64,000 bases of DNA, from contig JAMDHS010000011.1 in the NCBI GenBank assembly GCA_029717555.1, positions 62,001 through 126,000 of the forward strand, read 5' to 3'. Shown in pieces: positions 24,149 through 61,783 of this stretch. Position 1 is the stretch's first letter. Each line of letters opens with the position of its first letter. A program made the translations under genes and the position numbers. The notes beneath the pieces are model-generated. The model did no database searches. It was not told the DNA's origin and was given only the letters and a program-made list of their open reading frames with translations. This stretch comes from Peribolospora baueri. Taxonomy: Eukaryota.

Positions 24149-27100
24149 TCAGAACCACGGCGCCCATAGGGTATCCTGCATGGCCAAGTTTTGAGGGTTA
24201 GTGGCACGAGACATGAGATCAATGATTGATTGACAGGCCGGTGTAGTGCCATTTGGCTGTTGAAAGGCAATATAAGCGCAGCAAGTCAGAATCAACACTC
24301 TTATTTCTACGTACAGACCAATTCGAAAAGGAACGCACCTTTTCTCGTTCAAGCTTGCATGACATGAGCTGTGCCTTTTGAATGATCTGCTGGATCGCCT
24401 GCAGCGTGCAGTCACGCAAAGCACCTTCCGGAGGCTGCTTATGATTGACGTTGAACCAGACCATTACTTCGTCGCGGATGAAAATGCTAAGCCGATGCTC
24501 CAGGTCGTAGAGCTGCGGCGCACAGAAGGCCTGGTGTCAGCGCGAGATAAATCGCAGATCGTGTCGGAAAGCAGCAGCAACTCACCTCTGGCTCAGTCAA
24601 GGAGCGACCTAGCGCCATCAGAGAGCTTGTAAGCAAACCTTCTATTCCCACTGGCGTGATGAAGTTTTGGACATTCGGCGTCAGTCGGAATGGCACGCTG
24701 TCGCTGCTCGCGAAGTTAGGGCCTGCAGGCGAGAAGGCTGCGTGCGATGCGATGGGACGAACAAACGTCAATACGTGATCGGTATCCCGCTTTCAACTAT
24801 AGCAGGCCGACCCACATGGCAAGATGTCCGACATGAAGACCTGGCCGTTCGCCCGAGATACGTGCAACCGAACGGGCAAACGGTTGCTGATGGTGAAGAT
24901 GTAGGTCAAGAATATGATCGACGCCATTTGCAGAGTGAACTGCTTGCGCATGAGCCAGAGATCCGTCGGCGACGCCATTGACCGCCACATGAACTGATGG
25001 TTTGCATGATGGTCACGGAAATGTTTAGCATATGGGAAGAGACAGTGATTAATGGAGAGCATGGGGAAGGCTCACCTTGCTGAGGACATTGTCTGGTACC
25101 ATCTTCGTACTAATCTCGTCCATCAACTCCATACGCAAGTTGATGAGGCCAGCGCGCTGTTCATGGGGAGCAAGAAGGCATTAGATAGAGCCACGTTAGA
25201 AGTGTCGTCCTGGCGCTGGACTCACCCCCTTTGACTGATCGAAGGAGGCTTTGAGCTTCTCAGTGAAAGCGATGACAGGGTCGTCCTTGCTCATGCCGAG
25301 CTCCTCGCAGTGCTTCTCGTAGATGTCTTGAAGACTGACGAACGAGCTCTGACTTTCCATCAGGCGAATGTTAGGCGCTAGAGGAATAGCCGCCGGCACA
25401 TGGAAAGATAAGCTCCGCTTGCGAGTCTCCTTGCGACTTTCAAGGACACTGAAGAAAAAGGATGGGTTAGTTTAGTTGAAATAGCTTGGGACTACTAATT
25501 CACTCACCCATTCAGAATACGCAGCATTTGCATGTTCTTCTCTTCTCGACGCGAATATCTGGGCGCCGGAAGCTGAACAGAGAACGAGTGCGTGCTACCC
25601 TTGTGGCCGAGAATGGTGAGGCGGCGAGTACACGTGCCGCCGGAACGCACGACTTCGTACTTCGGCAGGATTCGACTGATTTTGACGAAGTCAGCGTTGC
25701 TATCGTCCATTTTGAGGTATTGGCCAGGCACCTCAACCTCGTCAAACTTTTGGTGCTGGAACTCAACCAAGTAGTGACTGGAGTGCTCCAGAGGCTGCCA
25801 GCGCGGCCGTCGATCGAGGATTGCCTCGTAGCGGTCACGCCAGCGCTGGAGGCGCTGTACGTAATCGCGCAATGTAGGTTTGCTTTTTACGAAGTCTTCC
25901 TCGAACGCAGCCTGTGATAAGGAATTGAGTGATGTGAGCCTTTGTGCGAATCCACATGCCCACAGGCAGAACAAGAAGCAGAACTCGCCTTCAAACCAGC
26001 AGGATGTAAATTTTCCGCGAACCGAGCCACATTTGCGGCTGATGCGGGCGCCAGCATGCCATTGTCGTTTTGGCTCAAAGCGCGGCCCACATATTGCTGC
26101 CGGCCAATAACGAGACTTCTGTCAGGTTTACCACGTAGAAGTTTGTGCAACAAAAATGACGACTCACTTGCAGGCCATCGTTCAGAAGGGCATTTGTCAG
26201 GCGATACATGTCCTCGTCCCCCTGCGCTTTGAAACGCTGTTGGATCTGGTCGACCATGCTCTCCATTGTAAGGGCGAGAAGCGGAAAGGCGGTCTTAAGG
26301 ATGTTAAGGATCTCGTCCACCAGCTCCCACGGCTGTCTCGGTACAGCGGTTGGCGTCCCAGTGGAAGAGCTAGTTGGCGGAGAGCTCCCAGCGGGCTGAC
26401 CTGCAGTTGGAGCCGACGTCGGGGTGGGAGTAGCAGCAGCAGACGACGTAGCCGGAGAGCTACCTGCAGCCTGGCCAGCGTTCGCAGTGGCGCCATTGCG
26501 TGCCGCCATTTGCTGAGCCATGATCAGCTGATTGCGGCGCACGTTGGCGAAATCTTCCTTCGTCGTCCGCAACTGGAAATACAGAGCCTGGGAAGGAAAG
26601 AGCATGCAGACGTGTAAGTAATCTCTTCCTAACGTCCAAGGCTCGCGATACTCACCTGAGGATACGTCTTGGCAATCCTCATCAGAATCACGCGAGCGTA
26701 CTTTGCCTCTCGCTGCGAGAGACTCTGCAACAGTTGCGGAATGAAGGCGATCCAGTTCCATACTGGCATGTCCCCCTTGTACCCTTCAAACGCCTTGGAC
26801 ACGGTCCCAGCCTGGTCATCGAAGCCCAGGAACCAGAGGATGCGGATAAGGAGCTTGTAGACCTTGGAATTCTTGTAGAGGCCGGCCGCTTGCAAGTAGC
26901 AGCTGACGGCGTTCCCGGCGTAAGCCATTTCGGTCGGCTTCTCCCGAAAGATGCGGTCATTGTACCGACCCCATTCCATCCAAGCCTTGGCCAAGTTCAA
27001 GTCCATCTGAATTGCAGTCGCAAAGGCCTGGTTTGCGTCGTCGTTCAATCCGAGTTTGGCCATGAACATGCCCTTGAGCGTGAAAAACTCGGCTTTTTGA

Positions 27101-30100
27101 GGAGCCGCAAAGAACATCAGGTTGGTGTTGTTGATGACATCGAGACCGGCGGACAGCTCGTTCGGGTTTTGGTAGTGGCATTTAGCTTGCTCTCGCAGCT
27201 TGAGGAACGCCTCTTGGATCTCGATGTTGGGAAGTGTGTAGATTTTGGTCAACGAGCTTATGCAAACGTCGTTCAGATGGTGCTTGCGAGCAACGTAGGC
27301 GAAGCGATTGATGATCCAGGCCGTTTCGTGATACCCGCGGTAAGCGTACGAGTTGGTGCTGGAGCCCGTCGCGCCGTTTTGTATCATGGGGATCAAAGGC
27401 AAATACGCCTTGTTGACAGCGCCAAACACGTGTTGTCGCCATGCTACGAGATCGCTCCAAGCATCGATGTCGTCCCATGAGTTCGGTAGACGCTCGCGCC
27501 AAGTTTGCATGACGTTCTTGAGCTCCTGCGAGCGCTGGTCAAGGTTGGTGGCGTTGGTCTGCGCAAGGCTCGCGAAGATCTGGCCAGCTTCTTGAAGCTC
27601 AACGAACTGTTGAAAAATCTGAAGCAGAGGTACGTGGGCCTGTGTGACGATTGTTGGCAGCCCGTGCCATTTCCGTAGCGACAGTTGTACGGCTTCGTCG
27701 CAGATCCGCGAAAACTCGCTGGCCTTCTCTGCCCCGCCTTGCGACTTGACGAGTGCCATGTACGCCTCGAACACCCTGCGCCGAGGAGTGGGAGTCGCCG
27801 CTAAACTTTCGAGGGACTGCTCGAACAGCTCGCGCTCGGCCGTCCAGTCGGAGAGGCGCCAAGCACACTCGAGAAAGAGGTCGGTGTTGACTTCGAGCTT
27901 GGCGAGGTCATTGAGGATGTCCCACTGCTGCAACTTCTGAGCGCACATGACCCAGTGATCGCCCCAGACGTTGTACTCGGACTCGGTGAAATGCAACACG
28001 CCGGACCGGGACTTTGTCTGCGCTGCCTCATACACTGCCTGAGCTTGCGCCCACATGCCGTTCTGCTCGTAAGATATGGCAACGTTGGTTTCCGTGTAGA
28101 CGCACCGACGTCGCCAGAGGCCATAGAACATGTCCTCTTCAGAAAGCTCGGCAAACAGTTCTGCGAGCGCATCCAGAGCCGTTTCCCGGATAGTCTCCTC
28201 GTCACGAGAGAGGTTTTCGAGAAGGCCTTGAAGCAGTTCGATGGAAGTGTACCACGCGTTGAAAGTCCTGCCGAGGAACTTGACCACGTGCGGGGGCAGT
28301 TCCATCTGCGGCGAGCACGCCAGGGCGCCTTCGAGCAAGGTCTGAATGACGTTGGGGCGTCGATCGACCTGCTTGAGGTGGTACTCCTTCGTCAGGGTGC
28401 CGATAAAGTAGTTGGTCAAATCACGTGGCTCACGGCGGGAGAGACAGCGCCAGGCGGCCCTGAAGAAGGTAACCCAGAATCGATGTGTAATCTCGGGAGA
28501 CGTGTACAGCAAGGCGCGGGCGGGTTGCAGGATGTCCTTGGCGCAATACCCTTGCAACTGACGTCCAAACTCTGTGTCTGGCCACGCAGGGCTCGGATCC
28601 TCTTGCAAGAGCAGGTCGTCTTCGTCTGCCGAGCCGAGGAGGAGGTCAAGGGCTTGCTGCAACCAGTCCGAGTCCGCCAAGAACTCCCAGCTTTGGTGGC
28701 CAAAGACATAGTGCAGTCGAGTTGCGAGCGAGCGTGCGCACGTCTTATCGAAAACCTCAAGGAACCGAGAGCGCAGCTTCGGGTCCGGGTTCCGGCATCC
28801 GAGCAGGAAAGCGTTCTCGAGTCGAACCGTCAGCTCCGTGCGGGCGAAATCCGGAGTCGTGTAGATACTGAGAATGAGCTCAAGGAAATCGTTCAGCAGA
28901 CTTTGGTCGCCGCGCGCCTCGAAAGACATCATCTTGACGAGAATGCCAGCCTTCTCCTTCACGGTGGGGAAAGTCTCCTTCTGCTCCAGGATGAGCTTCC
29001 TCATCATGTCGAGGATGAAACGACAGAGGTAAACGCTCGAAGACTTCTCGACTAGTTGAACCAGTGCGCTCAAGAACCAGCGACGCTGTTCCTGCAGCAA
29101 TGAGATGCGGTCCCTCAAAAGCTGGAGCACCATAATGAGGAGCTTGAGCTGAGGATCCGAGGGCAGTACTGGGCTGTCGGCGTTCAGATGGTCCTTCGTG
29201 AGCTTGGTCAGTGCCTTGATGATGGACGGCGTGAAGGGTTCAACCTGAATGAGAATGACGCGGAGAAAGATTAGCTCAGAATGAACCAGAAAAGGTGGAA
29301 ACGATGACGCATCTCACCTTGTCCGGTTTGGAAACAGCCCAGCTCCGGAGCAAAACAATGGCGCCATGCAAATTGGTCAAGCTGCGCAGACCCTCTGAGA
29401 TGGTCGTGTCGGCAAAATTCAAGAATGCTCGCATGTCATCCTGGTCTTCCTCGCCTTCATCCGAAATTGACGACGGAGCCACTTTGAGGAGGCGTTCTAG
29501 AACACCCTGGAAAGCGTCGTGAAGAGCGGGCTCTGTGCTCAGCATGCTCTTCTCGAGAAGCTTGTGTAGCTGGGGCAGGTGGGCTTGGAACCAGTCGTCG
29601 GATTTGTTTGCGACGACCAGGTTCAGTACCTCTGCCGAATTGAGCAGCATGTGGATCGTGTTCTCGTTGACTTCTGACTGCACCAGAGTCCTCTGGAAGA
29701 AGGCAAGCTTAACGGTGACGTCGCTCCAGGCCGGCAGCGAGAGCAGCTCTGTCAGCGCGGAAAGGGCCCGCCGAACATGGCGAGACTTGTCGAGCGGCTC
29801 GGCGGACATGGCGACAAAGCGAAGAAGGTAGCTGACGATAATCTCACGATGCGCCATGGCCGGGACGTAGGTGTCGGCCGCGCTCAATGAGACCGACGGT
29901 GCAGAGGAGCCAGCCGTATCGAGGCGCACACGCTTGCGAGAAGGCGAGCCGGATTCGTCCTGGCTGCTTGACTTGGGCGACCTCCTGACGGTCGTCTCCT
30001 CGTCGCTGTCTCCCGCAATGCTAGCAAGTCGGCGTTTCTCCCACTTGAGAACAAGCTCGATCAGACTGATCGTGAGGCTTCGACTCTCCGAGGTCGCTGC

Positions 30101-33100
30101 CGGGTTCAGACCGAGACGGTTGAGCGAGTTGACGAAATGAGGGACAAACAGCTCACGACACGGGTAAAATTGATCGGGGTGGCGGACGATGAGATGGAAG
30201 ATGTTCGTGAGCTGAGGCAGGTTGTGACTGTCCTCGAGCATGATGCGCCGAGTATACTTGCTCCAAACCAAAGCACCACCCTCTTGAGACGCGAGTCTCT
30301 GTGGCAGAGCCGGAGTAAGGATGTCCAGCGCTTGTCGAGCGAGAGCCTTGCCTTCTGACTGGTGTGAACGTAAGAGGCCCGAGTACACTTGCAAGATGAT
30401 CTTGCTTGGCGAGTCAAAGACTCCGAGGAACCGCGCGATGAAAACGTAGGCCGCGTTCTTGGCCGTGACGTCCTCCGCGGTGATGTTCATCCAGCCGAAT
30501 TTGATGACGTCCTTGCGCACCGGAACGATCATGTCTGAGCAATGCTCCACGATCATAGTCGACATGTGCAGGAGCTCGATGCGGTACGCGTCATCGGAGC
30601 ACACGGCTTGTGCGCTTTGCTTGGTCAAGAACGGCCGCCAGACGCGAGTCACGAGCGCTTGCGTGAGTTCGTTGTTGATCAAAGCCTCCTTCTTAGCGTC
30701 CAGCTTGGCGGTTCGGAAAGTGGCCAGTAGCATAGGATTGATGATTATGCGCAAAATTTGCGCTTTGTGGGACTGGGAGATGTCCTTGTCCTCGAAAAAG
30801 TCAATGAACTTCTTCATCGCTGCGCGCTTGAGAGAAATGTCGTCGCTTCGTGCTACGCGCTCAAAGATAAACCGACTGACGTGGGTGTAATCGATCGAGT
30901 TCCGATATGTGAAGACGTCAACGACCTGGAAGATGAGATCGAGCTCGGGTGTTTTCCGAAGGTGGGTCAAGAAGATGTCGACGAGGTGCACAGACTCGCG
31001 CATCTGCCTCGTGGGAAGCGAGCGCTCTGCACGGCGACGACGTCGGCCTTCCGGTGACTTCCAAATGGCCAGCAGGGCTTCAAGGACATCAACGTGCTCG
31101 ATCGTCCATTCGGGCGTCTGCTCGAGGAGCGCTCTGATGATCAGGAGACCTTGAACGACACGATCCCCGTCGGGTTTGAGCAGAGGCAGAAGCAAGCGTT
31201 CCTTGGCGGAGGTGATCTCGGCGCGGATGCTGGCGGCGTGCTCAGAAGCGATGACTCTGCAGAAAGTCTGCAGATATCGTCGGTCCCCAATACGTTCGAA
31301 GAAGTAGTTGACGCCTTCAGCCGCGTAGCGGTTCAGGTACTTGGCGAGCGGCGTCGTGAAAGGGGTGCTTAACGTCCTCCTGAGCTGCGTCTCAATCTCA
31401 ACCACCCCAACGACGAGGTCATTCAGGAAGCAGTTGGCTGCAGGCGGGAGAAGATGGAAGATGTTGACGATGCCTGCCATGACCTTCACATCGACATTTT
31501 CCTCCACAGACATCACCGTTGCGTTCTGCAGCGTCGCCGGCTCCGACAAGGCACGCAGATGATCCAGAAGCTTGTTGCCGATCTCGACCTTGAAATAATT
31601 GGTCAAGAGCTCGAGCAGACGCGCCAGTCCTTCCAGGCCTGAGACGGACAGACGCTTATGATCGGCGAGATTCATCAAGATCGGCCGAAGGCCCGTTTGA
31701 AGGAGGTCCTTAGGAAGCTTGCTCTGGCGGCTCAGGACGTCGCGCAGGCTGTCGTAAGCGGTTTGAACGACCTCTGGTGACCTCGAGTACAATGACTTGA
31801 AGTAGACACCGATGATTTGCATGCGCGGAGCGCTCTGCTTTGGGCCGAAGAAGTCGGTGCACGCCATGGCCGCGGAGAGCAGTTTGATACAGACGACGCG
31901 GAGGTTGTTGACGGCTACCGTGTTCTTGTACTGAGACGTCCGGCCAAGTAGGGCCTGATCGTCCGCGTCCGCGAGCGCCAGAGCTTCGTGGAGGACGCGT
32001 AGCAGCTCGTCGCTAAACTCTGGCAACGGTGGTCGCAGAGTCAGACAGTAGGTGATGGCGTCGATGTGGCCGATCTGCATTCCAAACGGCAGGGCCCGGA
32101 GCGGTTTGGCGAAAATGGGACCCAACAGACGGTCGCGCACCGGTGCCAGCATTTCGTGAACGGGGCGGCCTTGCAGTTCGCCGAGAAGCTCAAACGCTTT
32201 CCGTGTCGTTTCTCGCACGGTCGCGTTGGAGCTGGACAGCTCGGTTACGAGGAGAGAGATGAGGTGTGAACGCTTGAGCTGGCGGTCCGGCGTTTCGGTA
32301 TCTTCTCCGACCTGCACGGCCTTGCGGATGACGTCAAGCAGCGTCTGACTGACTTCCTCCACGTTGCCCGGCGGATCGGTTGGCATGTCCTTAAGCATGA
32401 AGAGAAGGGCGCGCACGAATTCGATCACCCGCTCTAACATCCACTGGCTGCCGAGATCGACCTCGTTGGTCAACAACCTGATGCCCGTCCAGCCGCCCGT
32501 CTTGCGCGTCCAAGACTGCTCGTAGCAGAGCGAGGCGAACTTTTGCCCGAGGTGATGCAGGACAATGCTCGGAATGTCCTGTTTGCCCTCGTCCTCAATC
32601 TCCACGTCACGCAGGTTGGTGACAATGACCTTGACGAGCGCGGCGGTCACCTTGAGCTCGCGTGAGACGGACAGGCTCCCGAGCGTCTGTGCAATGGACT
32701 CCAGGAATGCCATGGTCAACGCAGTCAATGGTCGAACGATAGGCGTCGTAGATACCTCCCGCTTGAGCTCAAGGCCGAAGATGTGTTTAGCGAGATCCAC
32801 TATGTAACTGGACGCCTCGTCGGTGAGCTCCTCCGCATGCGTCGTCTCGAAAAGACCGCGTATGACCTTTTGGAAGAGAGACTCGCGCTCGGCATCATTG
32901 AGCGTGCCTTCCAAGAACAGGGCGACCGCATGACGTAACAATTCGTACGCTTTTCGCCGGTAGAACTCGTTCGTGTTCCTGACGTTTGTTAGCGCCAGGT
33001 CCGTGATCGGCGCGAGCGCCAGCGATTGCGGTCGGCCGTCAAAAGCAAGCGTGAACGTGGCTTCCTTCGCGTCCTTATAAGTGAGTCGCGCAGGCTGCTG

Positions 33101-36100
33101 GAGGAGTCGACGATTTCGTCCACCCATCTTGCCTAGAATCCGCATGGTCGTATGGGAGTGCTGATGGTTATGTGGAAGAGGCTGGAGGTGCTTCCACAGC
33201 GCCGACATGATCTCGTAGCTGTAAGGTGCCATGATTGGGTCGAGGAACTCCTGGGTGAGGTTGTCGATGCAAAGTTCGAGAGTGCGAAGGCCTTGGCTAA
33301 CGAGCTCCGGCGACGACTGCAGAGCCAGCACGAGCGGCTTCATGAGGTAGCCGAGGTACGGGAGGAGAACGCTAAGTCGGACAGGGACGGTGAGGCACAA
33401 ATCGACAAAAATTTCGCGTTGCGATGGCTCGGCGTTGTTCAGCAGCGTGTTGAGGTTCTCCAGTAGGACTTGCAGGAGCGGCAAGACGTCTTTGTAGAGC
33501 AACTCAAAGCGACCACCGCCGATGCTCCTGAACAGGGCCCGGAGGAGAAGGTAGTAGTTCGTCGGCTCCTCCGCCTTGCTTGCCAGCTTCATCGACGTCA
33601 TGATGAGACGGCTGAGATGAGGTTGCAGCACCGCCTCGTTGGCCTCCGGAAAGATGGTGACCGCCATGAAAGCCATCTTGAACAAACGAAGGGTGATCGA
33701 CGCGTGCTTCTTGTCCGACTTGCCCAACTGCTCCAAGCGGTTGACGAGGAAGCGAAGAAGAATGCCGACGAATCTGTGGGAGGAGGATTCGTTGGAGAGG
33801 AGGAACTGCGGTATGGCGAGCAGATTAGGATTCTTGAGCATCTCCTCGAAGAGGAAAGACACCTTGGCGCTCAAAACCTCCTGGAAGACTTGGGGCTCGA
33901 GGAGCAAGAAGACGTTGCAGAAGAGGTCCATGGTCTCCTTCTCGTCGCGCCCATCGCGGTGGTCGAAAACAGCCCAACAACGTACGCCGTTTTCCACCAT
34001 CCGGCCGACAACTTCGGCATCCGGGCCAGGCACGCCACAGTGCTTGAGTCCGACCAGGATCGTTTTCAGGCCGAAGACGAGACTTCGGAATAAGTATCGC
34101 AGGTCTGAGACGAGGTAGAGGCAGCGTTAGCGAGGAGTGGAACGGGGGAACAAACCATATCTGTGGGACACCCACCTTTGAAAGGATCCGGAATGACGCT
34201 CGCGTCCGCCACGATGGCTGCAGCCGCCTGGATGGGCTTACTGCGTTCGACCGCGATGATGTCCACTTCCAAGTCCTCTTCCTCTTTCTTTCCGCCCTGC
34301 TCGTCTACCTCCATCTTGTCGCTATCCTCCCCGCCCTTTGCTCTCTCGTCCTTCCCTTCCTCCTTGGCTTTACCCTTGTCGCTGTCCTTCGACGCAGTAC
34401 TGACCGACTTGAACTCTGGCGAGTGCATTTTGGCGAGGTCGCGATAGAGACGCCCCACGCTCGCAATCTTGTCCACAAACGTCTCGAGAATGCTGTGCAG
34501 CACCGGAATGGCCTCTTGAGTGCCGGTGTTGATGATGCTATCCAAGAGGTTGAGGAGGAGCTTGGCGCACATGGTCTGAATGCTCGGGGCCAGAGAGGGG
34601 TCGTGGAGGATACAAGCGTAGGTGTGGGCGATCCGGATCAGTTGAGGCTGTGGAAGCTCGTTCCTGGTATGATGCGCCAGGTCGGCGAGCATGCTACAAG
34701 CCAACGGCCGTAGAGTCTCGTGCGCCGTAAGGCCCGTCCCGATGAGCACTCTTTCATCCAATAGCGTGTCAATTTGAGGAATAAAATGCGTGCGGAACTC
34801 GGTGGACAGGATGTGCCGAGTTGCGACGAGGAGCTCCTTGCGCGTGGCCGACGCCTCAGGCGGACAGTCCTTCAGAAGCCTGATACTAACTTCTGGAATC
34901 GTCGTCAGGTAGTTGCGGAGTCCAGATGCAGAACCTCTGAGGACGTATGCGAGGAAGGACATGGTCTAAAAGCGGCACACAGACAGGTGGAACACAGACA
35001 GAAAAAGGGTGAGCGCAAGTGGACCTAATACAAGGTGAATTCAAGGAAACGCGCACCTTAACCTGCGCAACGATCAGCTCTGTAAATAAAGATCGCTTCT
35101 TGATGCCAGGAGCGACCCCGACAAACACCACTCCCTTCTCTGCCGCCTCACGATGGGCCTCAGCCTGAGGAGGCGCTTGAAGCCTCAAGAACTGTTCGAC
35201 ATTGGTCCAGAGCGTTAGACCTCTGGGCACGTTGTCCGGCAAGCACGCCGTCCTAGCTCACCTCGACGATCAGGGGGACGAAAACCTGGATGGCCTGCGG
35301 TACGACGGTGCGGTATGTCTGGAAGATGAGGACGATGGCGATGGGACATTCGGTGAGGACTTTGAAGCTGTATTGGCTTCGAGCCAGCTTGCGAGGTGCA
35401 TCAGCTGCCCCAGCACCAACGGTGTCGACCGCTGGAGACATAGGATTCGCCGGCTGCTGTTCCTGGTGGCTCGAAAAGGGGCAAGCCTCAGAGTCGTACG
35501 AGAAGAGCAAACCATCCTTCCAAAACAGGTACTCACCGAAGTCGCCGAAGCTTCGTCCTCGGCCTTGAAGCCCTCGTCCACTGTAGTCTCCATGTTCTTA
35601 TACAACATCTGCACGAGCTCAAGGAAAGGCTGCACCTGATCTTCCAACACTTGTTTGTAGCTACGATGGAGATCGATCACCACTTTGAGTGCCACTACCG
35701 CATTCTCCTCGTTGTCCGTCTGCAGGATGGTTAGCATCAGCTTCATCAGTGCCGGGGCGTGTGGTCGAAGGGCGTCGTTGTGTGGAAGGCGATGCAAGAT
35801 GTCGAGGATCGTGTGACGGAGCCTCTGTGGGAACGAAGGGGGGGCGGGATGAATAGCCAACAAGAGGTGAATCCTTGCTTTCGAAAGCTCCGGAGGATCC
35901 AAGGGTTAGTGCCGGTGCCCAGCGAAGATTTACTCACATGCTCCGCCTTGTCGCTGTAAAAAGCACACGGTACGGAGCTCAAGAGCTCCATGCAGACGGG
36001 CAAGAGCGCCTCGAGGAAGCGAGCATAGATGCGTTCGCTCGTCAGCACCTCGATCAAATCCTTGAGCTCGTTCGCCGCCGTCAGTTTGGCCTTGAAATCT

Positions 36101-57864: not shown

Positions 57865-58782
57865 CTTGCTCGTATTAGATACTCGATGTTTGGAGAGTAA
57901 GAGGAAGGCCTTCGAGGACGATCACAGGTCTTCTTGCTGCGGCAACATGACAGTGGCCTCAGCAATTGACCATCATCATCTTTCCAATCAATGTATCAGG
58001 CTGAAATACGGGCCCTTGTTTGCACCCGACGAGCTTTAAAAGCCATCTTCCGGTACGCCTCTCATTCGGTGCTCGCCCATCAAGAACAGCTCGGGTCTGT
58101 TTTGCGGCACACCGACGGAAGGATATGAGTCAAGTCGGTCGAAGTCTTGGTCATTTGCCCTAACTTCACAACGTAAATATTTTTTCTGTAGGTATTGAAA
58201 CTTTGCAGGTTCGCTCTGAAAGCGAACCTCGTCAACACCTTAACGAATCTCCGCTCTTAAAGATACACTGTAAATTTCCACATCTACGGATTCTTGTTGT
58301 CCTCGCCAACAGCGTCCTCCACGGACAATCGCTGATCGCGTGTGGAAGGACGGGCGTGGGCACTGGATTGATTGGCCCCAAGGCATCTTTGGGTTTGGAA
58401 ATTTCAAGGAGTGGGCTCAACTTCGTTGTCTGGAACGCTCGTCCCACCTTGCACGACGTCCGCCTCTCAGATAGTGACATGCCGACAAAGGACAGGCTTT
58501 ACAGTCCTGGACAATGAGGCCCCAGCCGGATTATTTTGGGTCCCTCCCGTGCCTTGGGCTTCCTGGCTCGCTGGAGCAAGCTCGAGGTGGTCTGCCAGCG
58601 TTTGACCGCTTGCCCATTTGGCGGACGGTGGAAAATTGGCGTGGAGACTGGGGACGAGTGCTACGTCAAAACTGGACCGGGAGGAATAAGGACGGGACAG
58701 AAAAGAAGAAATGAAAAGAGGGACGCGGACATTGACATCGGCGAAGGGCGCCGCGTTCGCATGTCACATGCCCACGGGACCG

Positions 58783-60698
58783 TCACTCCACAGCAGCGTC
58801 GCCAGTACCACTGCTCTCGCTCTCTATCAGCTCGCTCTTTCCGTTCGCATCCCTACCACGCCTCCTAAGCCTCCTCTTCTCCTCCTTCGCTTTCTTCCTC
58901 GTCTCCTCCTCAACGCCCACGCTTTCGTCCTGAAACTTCCTCCAGTTCTCTTCCAACCTGTCCACACACTCCTCAACTGCCCATCCCCGAACTTTGGCGA
59001 TAACGCCCATGATCGACCACACCCGCTCTGCGAGATTGGACGCGGAGTGCCAATCGCTTTCGGCTAGCAGTCGGGTGGGAGAACAGGCGAGGATGGCGGA
59101 GGGAAGGGAGGCGGAACGGGAGTTGATGGTGCTGGAATAATACAGAAATGACGAAGGAATGAGCGTCGCCGTCCTTCTTTAACCCTGGAAGCATCGTGCT
59201 CGCTCTCTGCCAACTCAGGAAGCGCACGTGGAGAACGAGCAGAAAACGTTAGAATGAGCGGCCTACGTGCAGGGAACGGGGGGCGTCGGAACGAAGCAGA
59301 AGTCAGGACGAGGCGTCGCAGTAGCACCAGAATCGCCGACCTATTTCCAATCTCATCCGAACGTCCTTCACGCCACTCACCTGCAAGCGCTGGATAGCCT
59401 GAGCGCTCATGGTGCAGCTATGCAAGTCCACATTGCACCTTCGTTCCCACTCCGCTCCCCATCGTTTCTTACATCGCGCGAAAAGGTCGATGGTGGCCCC
59501 AGGCGCGCGGACGCTGTGTAGAGACACATTCCTCCCCAGTCGGAAGGCCACCTCCAGTTGGGCTTCTAGGATTACCAGTTGGTGCGAGAGCGGAGTTTGG
59601 AGGGAGGTAAGAGTGCGGCGGGATGGGTTTACGGAGGAGGAAGAAGAAGAGGCGGCCGGCGGAGCAGGAGGCGTGTAGGTGGAAGCGCCCGAGTCCAGCT
59701 CCGCATGCGTAGCCGGAGCCACACCCGCGGCTAGTCCGGCTTTCCCCAAAGCAGAAGAAAGCGGCGGTGGCTTGCGAGTGTAAGGGACCTCTGGCAGTCG
59801 GAATACTCTATCCAGCCCCACCTCTCCGAGTAAAGCCTCCGGGTGACTCTCGAGATTTCGTTCCAACGTCTGCAGGACGTCGAAAAGAGCTACCGGCGGA
59901 GGCAACTTCGAAAGGAGGCGATCTAGCTCTCCGGTGTCCAAAGAGGAATCTCCAGAAGACTGGAAGAGCGATAGGTAGTGCTCCTCTGCCGTAGGCGGTG
60001 GTGACTGAAGGCAAATAGTGTGAGCAAACCAGGGATGGTAGCCTGGACACGAAGGCGGAGACGCAGGAACCATTCGTTCGACAAAAATAAATCAGAAAAC
60101 TCAATACACAGAATCTGTGCACCGTTGACATGGCCCGTTAGGGTACCCGTCAGCTTACCAAAAGCCGGCACCACCTTTTCACCGTTCCTCTCGGCCAACG
60201 CCTTCACGAGCTCCTGATCGCCCACGGAGGTGGCCATCGCGCACACCTTGCCGAGTTTGACGTCCCTCATCTTCTCCGAAAGCGCTTCTACACACGCCCA
60301 TGGATCTGGGTCATCTGTGGGGTGGCAATGGGCTATAGATTTCACGGAGAGTCAAGTGGGAAGAAGAGTTGCCCACGTTACCCGACTGCTCGTTCACTCA
60401 ATGTAATATTGGTCATTTGCAGTTAACACCAATCGCTCACCCTGAACGACGATGGGATTGTCACAGGCCAAGGACAACAGAGAGGAAGGGGCATCAGGGA
60501 AGGCGAAGGGAGGAAAACCCTGTGAGTCCGACGGCTGCACTCTTCTCCTTTTCCACCACAGACCGTCTCGCGCGGTCGGATTGGAGCTTCGAAACCTCCG
60601 CCGCCACTCACGTCCACAAGCCTCTCCCACAAGTGATCCGGTGGGATGCTCAAAGGCGGTTCCTCCGCCTGGGTCCCGTCGCCATCTCGTGCACACAT
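58783..60698 (-). CDS. TatD-family metal-dependent hydrolase (Scn1-like)
   Basis: LVDAHCHPTD (needs the 1-nt exon at 60441), VVPAFGYHPWF, LLGEVGLDR, VSLHSVRA, DLHSC, LLAESD and LEENWRKF. Confidence 0.88.
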
Positions 60699-60938
60699 AT
60701 TAGTGGTCCTTGATCGGAGGACGGGACATGTGAACGGAGTGGGCAATCTTAGTTGGAGAAGCATAACCACGCTTGATTCTACCGGAGATCGATCGCGCCG
60801 CAGCACGCTGTTGATTGCCGCCGGGTCAAGACGGTGCTCGACTTCAGAACGGACGCTCATCACGAAGGAAGGTCAGCGCGCTTCAACGAACACACACGCA
60901 CACTAGCATTGTCCTCGCTAACCCACAAACACTCCAGC

Positions 60939-61783
60939 ATGAGCGATCCCACCGCCATCAAGCGCCAGCTTACCATCAAGGCCAACGTCGTAAAGAGGTC
61001 AGTGGAAATGGACGAACCGCGCGCGCGTTCGCATCGAGTCGTCATCCATTGACCGTCTGTCGTCGTCGCCTTCCTATTCTCCGTCTCTCCCGCCTCGGCC
61101 TTGTATTCGCTCTCTCTGGTGAACATGGGTTCCATTTGCTGAACTTACGCGGAGACAGGTTGGCCAAGGAGGAGGTCGCGTACGAAAAGGAGGCGGAAGA
61201 TCAGCGGAAGAAGGTGGACAAGATGGTGGAGGAAGGCAAAGACGAATATGACGTTAAGAAGCAGGTGAGTCGGATTGGGACAAGACCAGATTGTGTTATC
61301 AGGTCATTCGTCCGGTGCCGCCTCCATTCGCTTTGAAACTGATTCGTCTTGCCGACTCTTTCCTCGCTCTTCCCGCTTTCCTTTCTCCCGTCCTCTCCCC
61401 ACTTATCCGCTTCCCCCTTAAGCGCGAGGTTCTTCAAGACTGTCTGCAGATGATTCCTGATTGCCAGAAGCGCCTCGCTTCCGCGGTCGGCGACCTCAAG
61501 TCGCTGGTGGTAAGTCGGCGTTGGCTTGTTGAGTCCCCGTGGCGGTTGCTCTAGGTGGTCGATCGGGACTCGCCACCGACGGCGCACACGTTGTGTTCTC
61601 TTGATTGTCTGACTTTCCCACGCCGGTTTTCTTGCCTTTTTATTATTCACGGCATCCGTCCCGTCCCATATCCCTTCTTCCGGTGCGCAGGAATCTCTCG
61701 ACACGTCGCTCGCCGAGACGGAGGAGTACAAGAAGGCCTTCGAGACTATCTCCGAGCTCGCCTCTCCTTCTGCTTCTTCCTGA
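60939..61783 (+). CDS. RBL2: Tubulin-binding cofactor A (Rbl2/TBCA), 4 coding exons
   Basis: IKRQLTIKANVVKRLAKEEVAYEKE...DEYDVKKQREVLQDCLQMIPDCQKRL. A probable 5'-UTR intron ends just before the ATG (ctaac...ccag C ATG). Confidence 0.9.

Follow-up and report, generated by a model that had tools for sequence, protein, structure and literature searches.

A predicted one-nucleotide exon completing the metal-binding motif of a TatD/Scn1-type gene in Peribolospora baueri

Gene model of the minus-strand locus

The window of this study is a stretch of 64,000 nucleotides from Peribolospora baueri (NCBI GenBank assembly GCA_029717555.1, contig JAMDHS010000011.1, positions 62,001 to 126,000 of the forward strand), eukaryotic DNA with a G+C content of 52-63%. 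On its minus strand, at 60698-58783, lies a gene that we classify by its sequence as a basidiomycete metal-dependent hydrolase of the TatD/Scn1 type. Our analysis concerns a single G at 60441, which we consider probably to be an obligatory one-nucleotide (1-nt) exon that completes the D-A-H-C-H motif of the encoded enzyme. The tests behind this proposal are an alignment with orthologues, an enumeration of canonical splice paths, the scoring of alternative isoforms against a profile, the anatomy of the splice signals, and the changes observed in a close relative. The six-exon model that includes the G (60698-60612, 60441, 60332-60159, 60042-59381, 59262-59228, 59131-58783) joins to 1308 nt and encodes 435 amino acids (aa) with no internal stop. 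Its parts, together with the sites used by competing explanations, are as follows.

60612..60698, minus strand: exon 1, with the ATG at 60698; 29 codons, ending CTT GTG GAC (L V D) in phase 0
60442..60611, minus strand: intron 1, 170 nt, GTGAGT...TTCAG; pyrimidine-rich towards its end
60441, minus strand: proposed 1-nt exon G, predicted first base of the GCC (Ala) codon in D-A-H-C-H
60333..60440, minus strand: intron 2, 108 nt, GTGAGC...CTATAG
60159..60332, minus strand: exon 2, CC CAT TGC CAC ... TTT G; encodes (A)HCHPTDDPDPW...VVPAF(G)
60043..60158, minus strand: intron 3, 116 nt, GTAAGC...CAG; phase 1, in the Gly codon of F-G-Y-H-P-W
59381..60042, minus strand: exon 3, GYHPWF ... LHSVRA ... 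VDLHSC ... RLQ
59263..59380, minus strand: intron 4, 118 nt, GTGAGT...GTAG
59228..59262, minus strand: exon 4, AAHSNVFCSFS plus 2 nt
59132..59227, minus strand: intron 5, 96 nt, GTGCGC...CAG
58783..59131, minus strand: exon 5, TINSRS...LLAESDWH...; stop codon at 58785-58783
60518..60521, minus strand: rival AG-G-GT, with AG at 60521-60520, G at 60519 and a weak donor GTTTTC from 60518
60594..60607, minus strand: rival phase-1 donors, GTGGCG at 60607 (leading to DVTHCH) and GTTTCG at 60595 (leading to DVSGGGAHCH)

Exon 1 closes with GAC at 60612 and is followed directly by the donor GTGAGT (60611-60606). The candidate exon is flanked by CAG (60444-60442) and GTGAGC (60440-60435), and the second acceptor, ctatAG (60334-60333), precedes CC CAT TGC CAC from 60332. 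An earlier sequence-only reading of this DNA had placed all three borders at these minus-strand positions, and the placement is correct. The predicted mRNA junction is ...GTGGAC-G-CCCATTGC... The start codon is backed by the opening MC and by the stretch PPDH...LVD, both common to the orthologues, including a more distant one from a metagenome (L001, see below); in the window gene the N-terminus of exon 1 holds PPDHLWERLVD, which can be aligned with the orthologue N-termini. An assembly slip at the locus is unlikely, because contigs built from two DNA runs of the same organism, with word depths of about 112 and 90, are identical to the window over 58900-60800; these runs may themselves be the source of the window.

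Exon 3 holds a low-complexity insert rich in Pro, Ala and Ser at about 59625-59665 (minus strand), reading ...PPAPPAASSSSSS..., at which contig pieces from other loci also align.

The conserved motif and the splice paths that reach it

A search with exon 3 yielded 130 relatives, 120 of which were listed and examined. Among those listed, the nearest are basidiomycete proteins (Tilletiopsis, Ceraceosorus, Ceratobasidium) with 35-52% identity to the full model, and exon 2 is 57-65% identical to the matching stretch of four orthologues. Exon 3 alone scores 23.4 bits against the Pfam family TatD_DNase (PF01026), under the cut-off of 27 bits; nearly all 120 listed relatives carry a precomputed match to PF01026, and the name of several is Scn1 or TatD DNase. 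A profile built from 26 relatives matches the solved chains of YcfH, a TatD-related DNase and TATDN3; when the solved structures were searched with a single orthologue sequence, no match was obtained. The columns G-x-H-P, H-S-V, D-L-H-S-C, E-S-D and D-x-H-x-H are invariant in the 26 relatives, and the window gene possesses GYHPW, LHSV and DLHSC in exon 3 and ESDWH in exon 5. In the TatD family such conserved positions bind metal, and D-x-H-x-H carries two of the metal-site histidines.

An H-x-H upstream of GYHPW is found in 75 of the 120 relatives examined; the other 45 are without an N-terminus or leave the pattern unmatched. A D precedes the first H by exactly two residues in 73 of these 75 by reading (script count: 72; the 73rd, P0028, has D-x-H-x-H and begins too near the motif for the test in the script), the two exceptions being P0008 and P0083. 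The middle residue of D-x-H is V or A in 72 of the 73 and S in one. With the G included, the window model reads LVD-A-HCHPTDDPDPW and aligns without gaps to 12 out of 12 orthologues that were picked for having N-termini, as in LVDAHCHPTDDPDPWA (window model) versus LVDVHCHPTDDPSPWA (orthologue). It is thanks to the 1-nt exon that D-A-H-C-H appears in the 435-aa model.

The requirement for one base follows from the reading frame. The D codon is complete at the end of exon 1 (phase 0), and the first two bases of exon 2 are the second and third of a codon; thus exactly one extra base is needed between them, and with it D-A-H-C-H results, as the sequence-only reading had stated. Its further claim that skipping the exon would shift the frame of the enzyme also holds: a direct join of exons 1 and 2 runs into a stop after 43 aa. 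We enumerated all paths from the ATG to H-C-H with one or two introns of at least 35 nt, allowing any GT or GC as a donor and any AG as an acceptor. There are 747 in-frame, stop-free paths, 17 with one intron and 730 with two. A D two residues before H-C-H is given by 1 of the 17 and 26 of the 730, and among these paths four keep exon 1 intact through LVD. The sequence LVD-A-HCH itself is produced by only two of the 747, one through the G at 60441 (donor GTGAGC) and one through the G at 60519 (donor GTTTTC).

One further candidate was tried and rejected: a single-intron path with a GC donor (GCGACG at 60682, 350 nt) also gives D-A-H-C-H, at the price of deleting the conserved PPDHLWERLV and with a poor donor.

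The isoforms were scored against a profile of 65 relatives (orthologues). The isoform with the 1-nt exon reaches 404.4 bits, DVTHCH 398.5 bits and DVSGGGAHCH 395.4 bits; an isoform started at the first Met of exon 2 reaches 368.0 bits, and the direct join falls to -1.9 bits. DVTHCH and DVSGGGAHCH are the one-intron alternatives that begin at the donors GTGGCG (60607) and GTTTCG (60595). Among the GT hexamers of the window these two donors occur at 0.87-fold and 1.08-fold of expectation, and GTGAGT and GTGAGC, the donors of introns 1 and 2, each at 1.9-fold.

The DVTHCH route deserves attention as an alternative to the 1-nt exon: a single intron, from the weak, shifted donor at 60607 to the acceptor at 60333, would yield D-V-T-H-C-H with one residue extra. 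It is an in-frame, stop-free GT-AG path of 275 nt, its whole protein still scores well against the orthologue profile, and its donor is unchanged in the close relative described below. Nevertheless, it adds a residue to a spacing that is kept in 73 of 75 relatives, and its isoform stays below the 1-nt-exon form. Its unenriched donor is without a G at +5 and lies only 4 nt inside a perfect GTGAGT, which would compete for recognition. Moreover, the route leaves the internal AG-G-GTGAGC and the 76-nt AG-free run before it unexplained. We regard it as highly improbable.

A second alternative accepts the message GAC-G-CC and differs in how it would be made, either through the G at 60519 or by one non-canonical excision displaced by a single base (GT...TA or TG...AG). 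Apart from the 60441 route, only the 60519 route leads canonically to LVD-A-HCH, and the shifted excision would yield an identical message in one step. Against the former, a G at +5 is missing from the donor GTTTTC, and the acceptor AG of this route reads AC in the close relative (60520 G to C), where the site is lost while the gene is still open. As to the latter, borders of the type GT...TA or TG...AG fit no known spliceosomal intron class, and a one-step excision leaves a strong internal acceptor and donor unexplained. Both forms of this alternative taken together appear very improbable.

Splice signals, neighbouring introns and a close relative

The arrangement AG-G-GT at 60441 exceeds chance expectation, because AGGGTRAG is expected 0.017 times per 277 nt and an AG-free run as long as the one preceding it is rare. 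The first figure is derived from 8 occurrences on 128 kb (both strands of the window), some of which are presumably ordinary exon ends. The AG-free run upstream of the AG at 60443-60442 measures 76 nt, a length reached before 102 of about 8,600 AGs in the window (fraction 0.0118). Elsewhere in the gene, the corresponding runs are 51 nt in intron 2 and 55, 76 and 40 nt in the other introns, and in the two introns of the neighbouring gene they are 2 and 118 nt. Branch-like sites picked by eye are GTGAC (A at -20) and CTGAT (A at -53) in intron 1 and TTGAC (A at -20) in intron 2, so that both sub-introns have a TGAC 20 nt before the AG; both also contain about 68% pyrimidines in their last 40 nt. 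The five introns at the locus that are placed by homology measure 96, 116, 118, 158 and 161 nt. In view of this range, lengths of 108 and 170 nt are ordinary, in line with the earlier claim that these two are normal for the window, and a single intron of 279 nt would be the longest.

On both strands the window contains 11 further AG-N-GTRAGY sites (for example + 14603, + 35006, - 57274 and - 13991), which are probably for the most part ordinary exon ends. An Rfam scan of 58500-61500 up to E = 1 revealed no RNA family. The idea that the introns are copies of a mobile intron-like repeat was rejected, since matches elsewhere in the window or between the two do not exceed 13-19 nt.

Two of the five placed introns belong to a divergent gene for tubulin-binding cofactor A at 60939-61509 (plus strand), whose start lies about 240 nt from the TatD start codon. 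Two of its exon pieces correspond to positions 17-50 and 51-79 of the Pfam profile TBCA, which places the 158-nt intron at 61265-61422, ending AAG. For the first intron, 161 nt long at 60998-61158 and with the donor GTCAGT, the borders were taken from the sequence itself. Farther away, at 26632-34126 on the minus strand, two very long open frames (894 and 1616 aa) carry matches to the HEAT-repeat ring and central domains of Tra1 and to the FAT domain; by these matches we assign the region to a Tra1/TRRAP-type gene with few introns.

A search for sequencing runs listed four DNA runs, all of one study, and no RNA run, an outcome that has no bearing on expression. Two of the four are the same-organism runs mentioned above; the contigs of the other two represent the close relative, here called organism B. 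Over 1898 nt it differs from the window by 30 substitutions and 3 indels (about 1.6% divergence). All bases of the splice signals used by the 60441 route are kept, the G itself is unchanged, and the rival donor at 60595 reads GC in place of GT. Exon 1 has no change. Intron 1 has 5 substitutions and a 1-nt insertion after 60566, and this stretch is therefore noncoding; intron 2 has 3 substitutions. In the two sub-introns, changes are about as frequent as in the other three introns (8 of 278 versus 11 of 330 positions, p = 0.82). Of all stretches, intron 4 (59263-59380) has changed most, by 7 substitutions and by 13 nt inserted after 59288.

Substitutions affect 11 of 1191 exonic and 19 of 608 intronic positions (Fisher p = 0.0013), i.e. 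exons change 3.4-fold less. The coding changes comprise 6 synonymous and 5 non-synonymous ones and create no new stop, and all 3 indels fall outside the coding sequence. This pattern indicates purifying selection on the gene since the split of the two organisms, and a dead, frameshifted gene is therefore disfavoured. Such a damaged gene is the third alternative to be considered: a border base would have been lost, or translation would start at the Met of exon 2, no H-x-H protein would be made, and the AG-G-GT would be coincidental. For this explanation speaks that 6 of 62 NCBI-annotated relatives start downstream of D-x-H-x-H, although these starts are more likely prediction errors. Exon 1, for its part, encodes the conserved N-terminus, a start inside exon 2 costs 36 bits against the profile, and the low chance expectation of AGGGTRAG given above speaks against coincidence. 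We thus judge the damaged gene very unlikely.

In several species the prediction of the N-terminal junction may be wrong, and similar tiny exons are possibly hidden there. The proteins concerned are P0004, P0009, P0014, P0026, P0078, P0083 and P0100. In the annotated orthologue of Ceraceosorus guamensis an odd acidic ...EDED replaces the hydrophobic LVD just before AHCH.

For a wider comparison, a metagenome search with a 5-row alignment of exon 2 gave 117 pattern matches, one of which (L001) was confirmed. This orthologue, whose identity over exon 2 is 39%, starts with MC and reads ...PPDHVLKHLSDAHCHPTD. A single intron of 46 nt (GTAATG...CTAAC...CAG; L001 286-331) interrupts a Leu codon in phase 1, 8 nt upstream of the D|A junction of the window gene. 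A further intron, at about 512-548, shares its position and phase with intron 3 of the window gene, in the Gly codon of F-G-Y-H-P-W.

Several points weigh against the 1-nt exon. Its case is built from comparison and sequence, from which the splicing itself is deduced. The gap between its score and that of DVTHCH is modest (5.9 bits), and the branch-like GTGAC and TTGAC were judged by eye against a loose consensus and are unscored. That organism B keeps the roughly 19 signal bases means little by itself and lends weak support: at about 3% intron divergence we estimate a probability of more than one half that chance alone would leave them all as they are. Finally, L001, the only more distant locus examined, is without the one-base exon; it would therefore not be an old shared feature, and as far as seen it appears neither old nor widespread. 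The check for a conserved AG-G-GT in relatives, suggested by the sequence-only reading, thus has a divided outcome, with the site kept in organism B and absent from L001. The obligatory nature of the exon, which the same reading had proposed, is favoured by the alignment, the paths, the scores, the signals and organism B, and it remains a prediction as far as the splicing is concerned.

Proposed splicing and one-base exons in other genes

According to our model, two canonical GT-AG introns of 170 and 108 nt abut the G at 60441, both would be removed, and the G would be kept in the mRNA as GAC-GCC-CAT-TGC-CAC (D-A-H-C-H). Each of the two short introns would be recognized as a unit, i.e. by intron definition. 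From about -3 to +6, the donor of intron 2 takes in the AG at the end of intron 1, an overlap of about ten bases. Because the overlapping donor and acceptor cannot both be engaged at once, the introns would be removed one after the other, leaving the G behind. Either order may be possible, since usable sites would remain in both cases: on the donor side, the context would change from AGG|GTGAGC to ACG|GTGAGC once intron 1 is gone, and on the acceptor side it would stay the same when intron 2 is removed. Sequential removal is most likely, in view of these steric considerations and of the published discussion of the Arabidopsis gene APC11 (PMC4674806).

Inclusion of the G is probably constitutive, because skipping leads to a stop after 43 codons. 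The same consequence can be turned into an alternative, in which the exon would be facultative and the choice between inclusion (active enzyme) and skipping (early stop, likely message decay) would set the enzyme level; this is the 'on/off switch' that the sequence-only reading had raised as a possibility. Alternative use of a 1-nt exon has been published for the plant gene VPS55 (PMC8831610). In the window gene, both sub-introns have strong signals, and under intron definition the donor at 60611 should be matched with the close-by branch site and AG of its own intron, not with those of the next; we therefore consider facultative use unlikely. If it were true, the amount of a Scn1-type nuclease would be tuned by the choice of the G, the introns would be removed in a fixed order, and the locus would offer a compact natural substrate for the way an intron-defining spliceosome handles overlapping splice sites.

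One-nucleotide exons are already known in plants and fungi. For APC11 of Arabidopsis, a constitutive 1-nt exon was proved with base-substitution minigenes and RT-PCR (Guo and Liu 2015, PMC4674806), and in their discussion the authors argue for intron definition with stepwise removal of the two introns. A survey of plant microexons describes conserved 1-nt exons in APC11 and VPS55 that are present in no reference annotation (PMC8831610). Like the window gene, APC11 and VPS55 have one base between two GT-AG introns that is required for the frame. They differ in being plant genes kept across land plants, and the base in APC11 is an A; the window site is seen in two organisms that are very close to each other.

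In Coprinopsis cinerea, annotation from long reads contains thirteen 1-nt exons in 13 genes, and omission of microexons leads to premature stops (PMC12230235). The host is a basidiomycete, as for the window gene; the 13 genes go unnamed in the passages on them, and a search of the parts of the supplements that were covered gave no match to TatD/Scn1. In Fusarium, CYP621A has an AG-G-GT 1-nt exon supported by transcript reads (Nelson and Syed 2026, PMC12940212). It shares with the window gene a single G in AGGGT that joins phase-mismatched exons and saves a conserved motif; the composite 'intron', more than twice the usual length, was missed by gene models, and the window gene is similar in this respect. 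CYP621A differs in being an ascomycete P450, in that its G is the middle base of a Gly codon, and in the 20-24 orthologues and SRA reads behind it, whereas the window case is read from DNA. The statement of the sequence-only reading that gene predictors would miss such exons agrees with what these reports say of annotation (PMC12940212, PMC8831610, PMC12230235).

No TatD/Scn1 gene with a 1-nt exon came up in full-text searches of the literature. Zero-nucleotide recursive sites and the spliceosomal twin introns (stwintrons) of fungi also juxtapose an acceptor and a donor inside an apparently long intron, which is removed stepwise with nothing left. The window site differs from them in that one base must stay, as removal of the full 279 nt leads to the stop after 43 aa. 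The window gene would add a basidiomycete TatD/Scn1 case to the known 1-nt exons.

The case leaves knowledge of splicing unchanged; its value lies in annotation and in a tidy test case of one base completing a catalytic motif. Automatic callers cannot place a one-base exon, and would call the enzyme frameshifted, N-terminally truncated or altered in its motif. The locus would also give a clean read-out for the removal of two introns with about ten bases of splice signal in common. For the enzyme itself, the prediction is that the activity of the whole protein depends on the G, a single base that would complete the motif with two metal-binding histidines.

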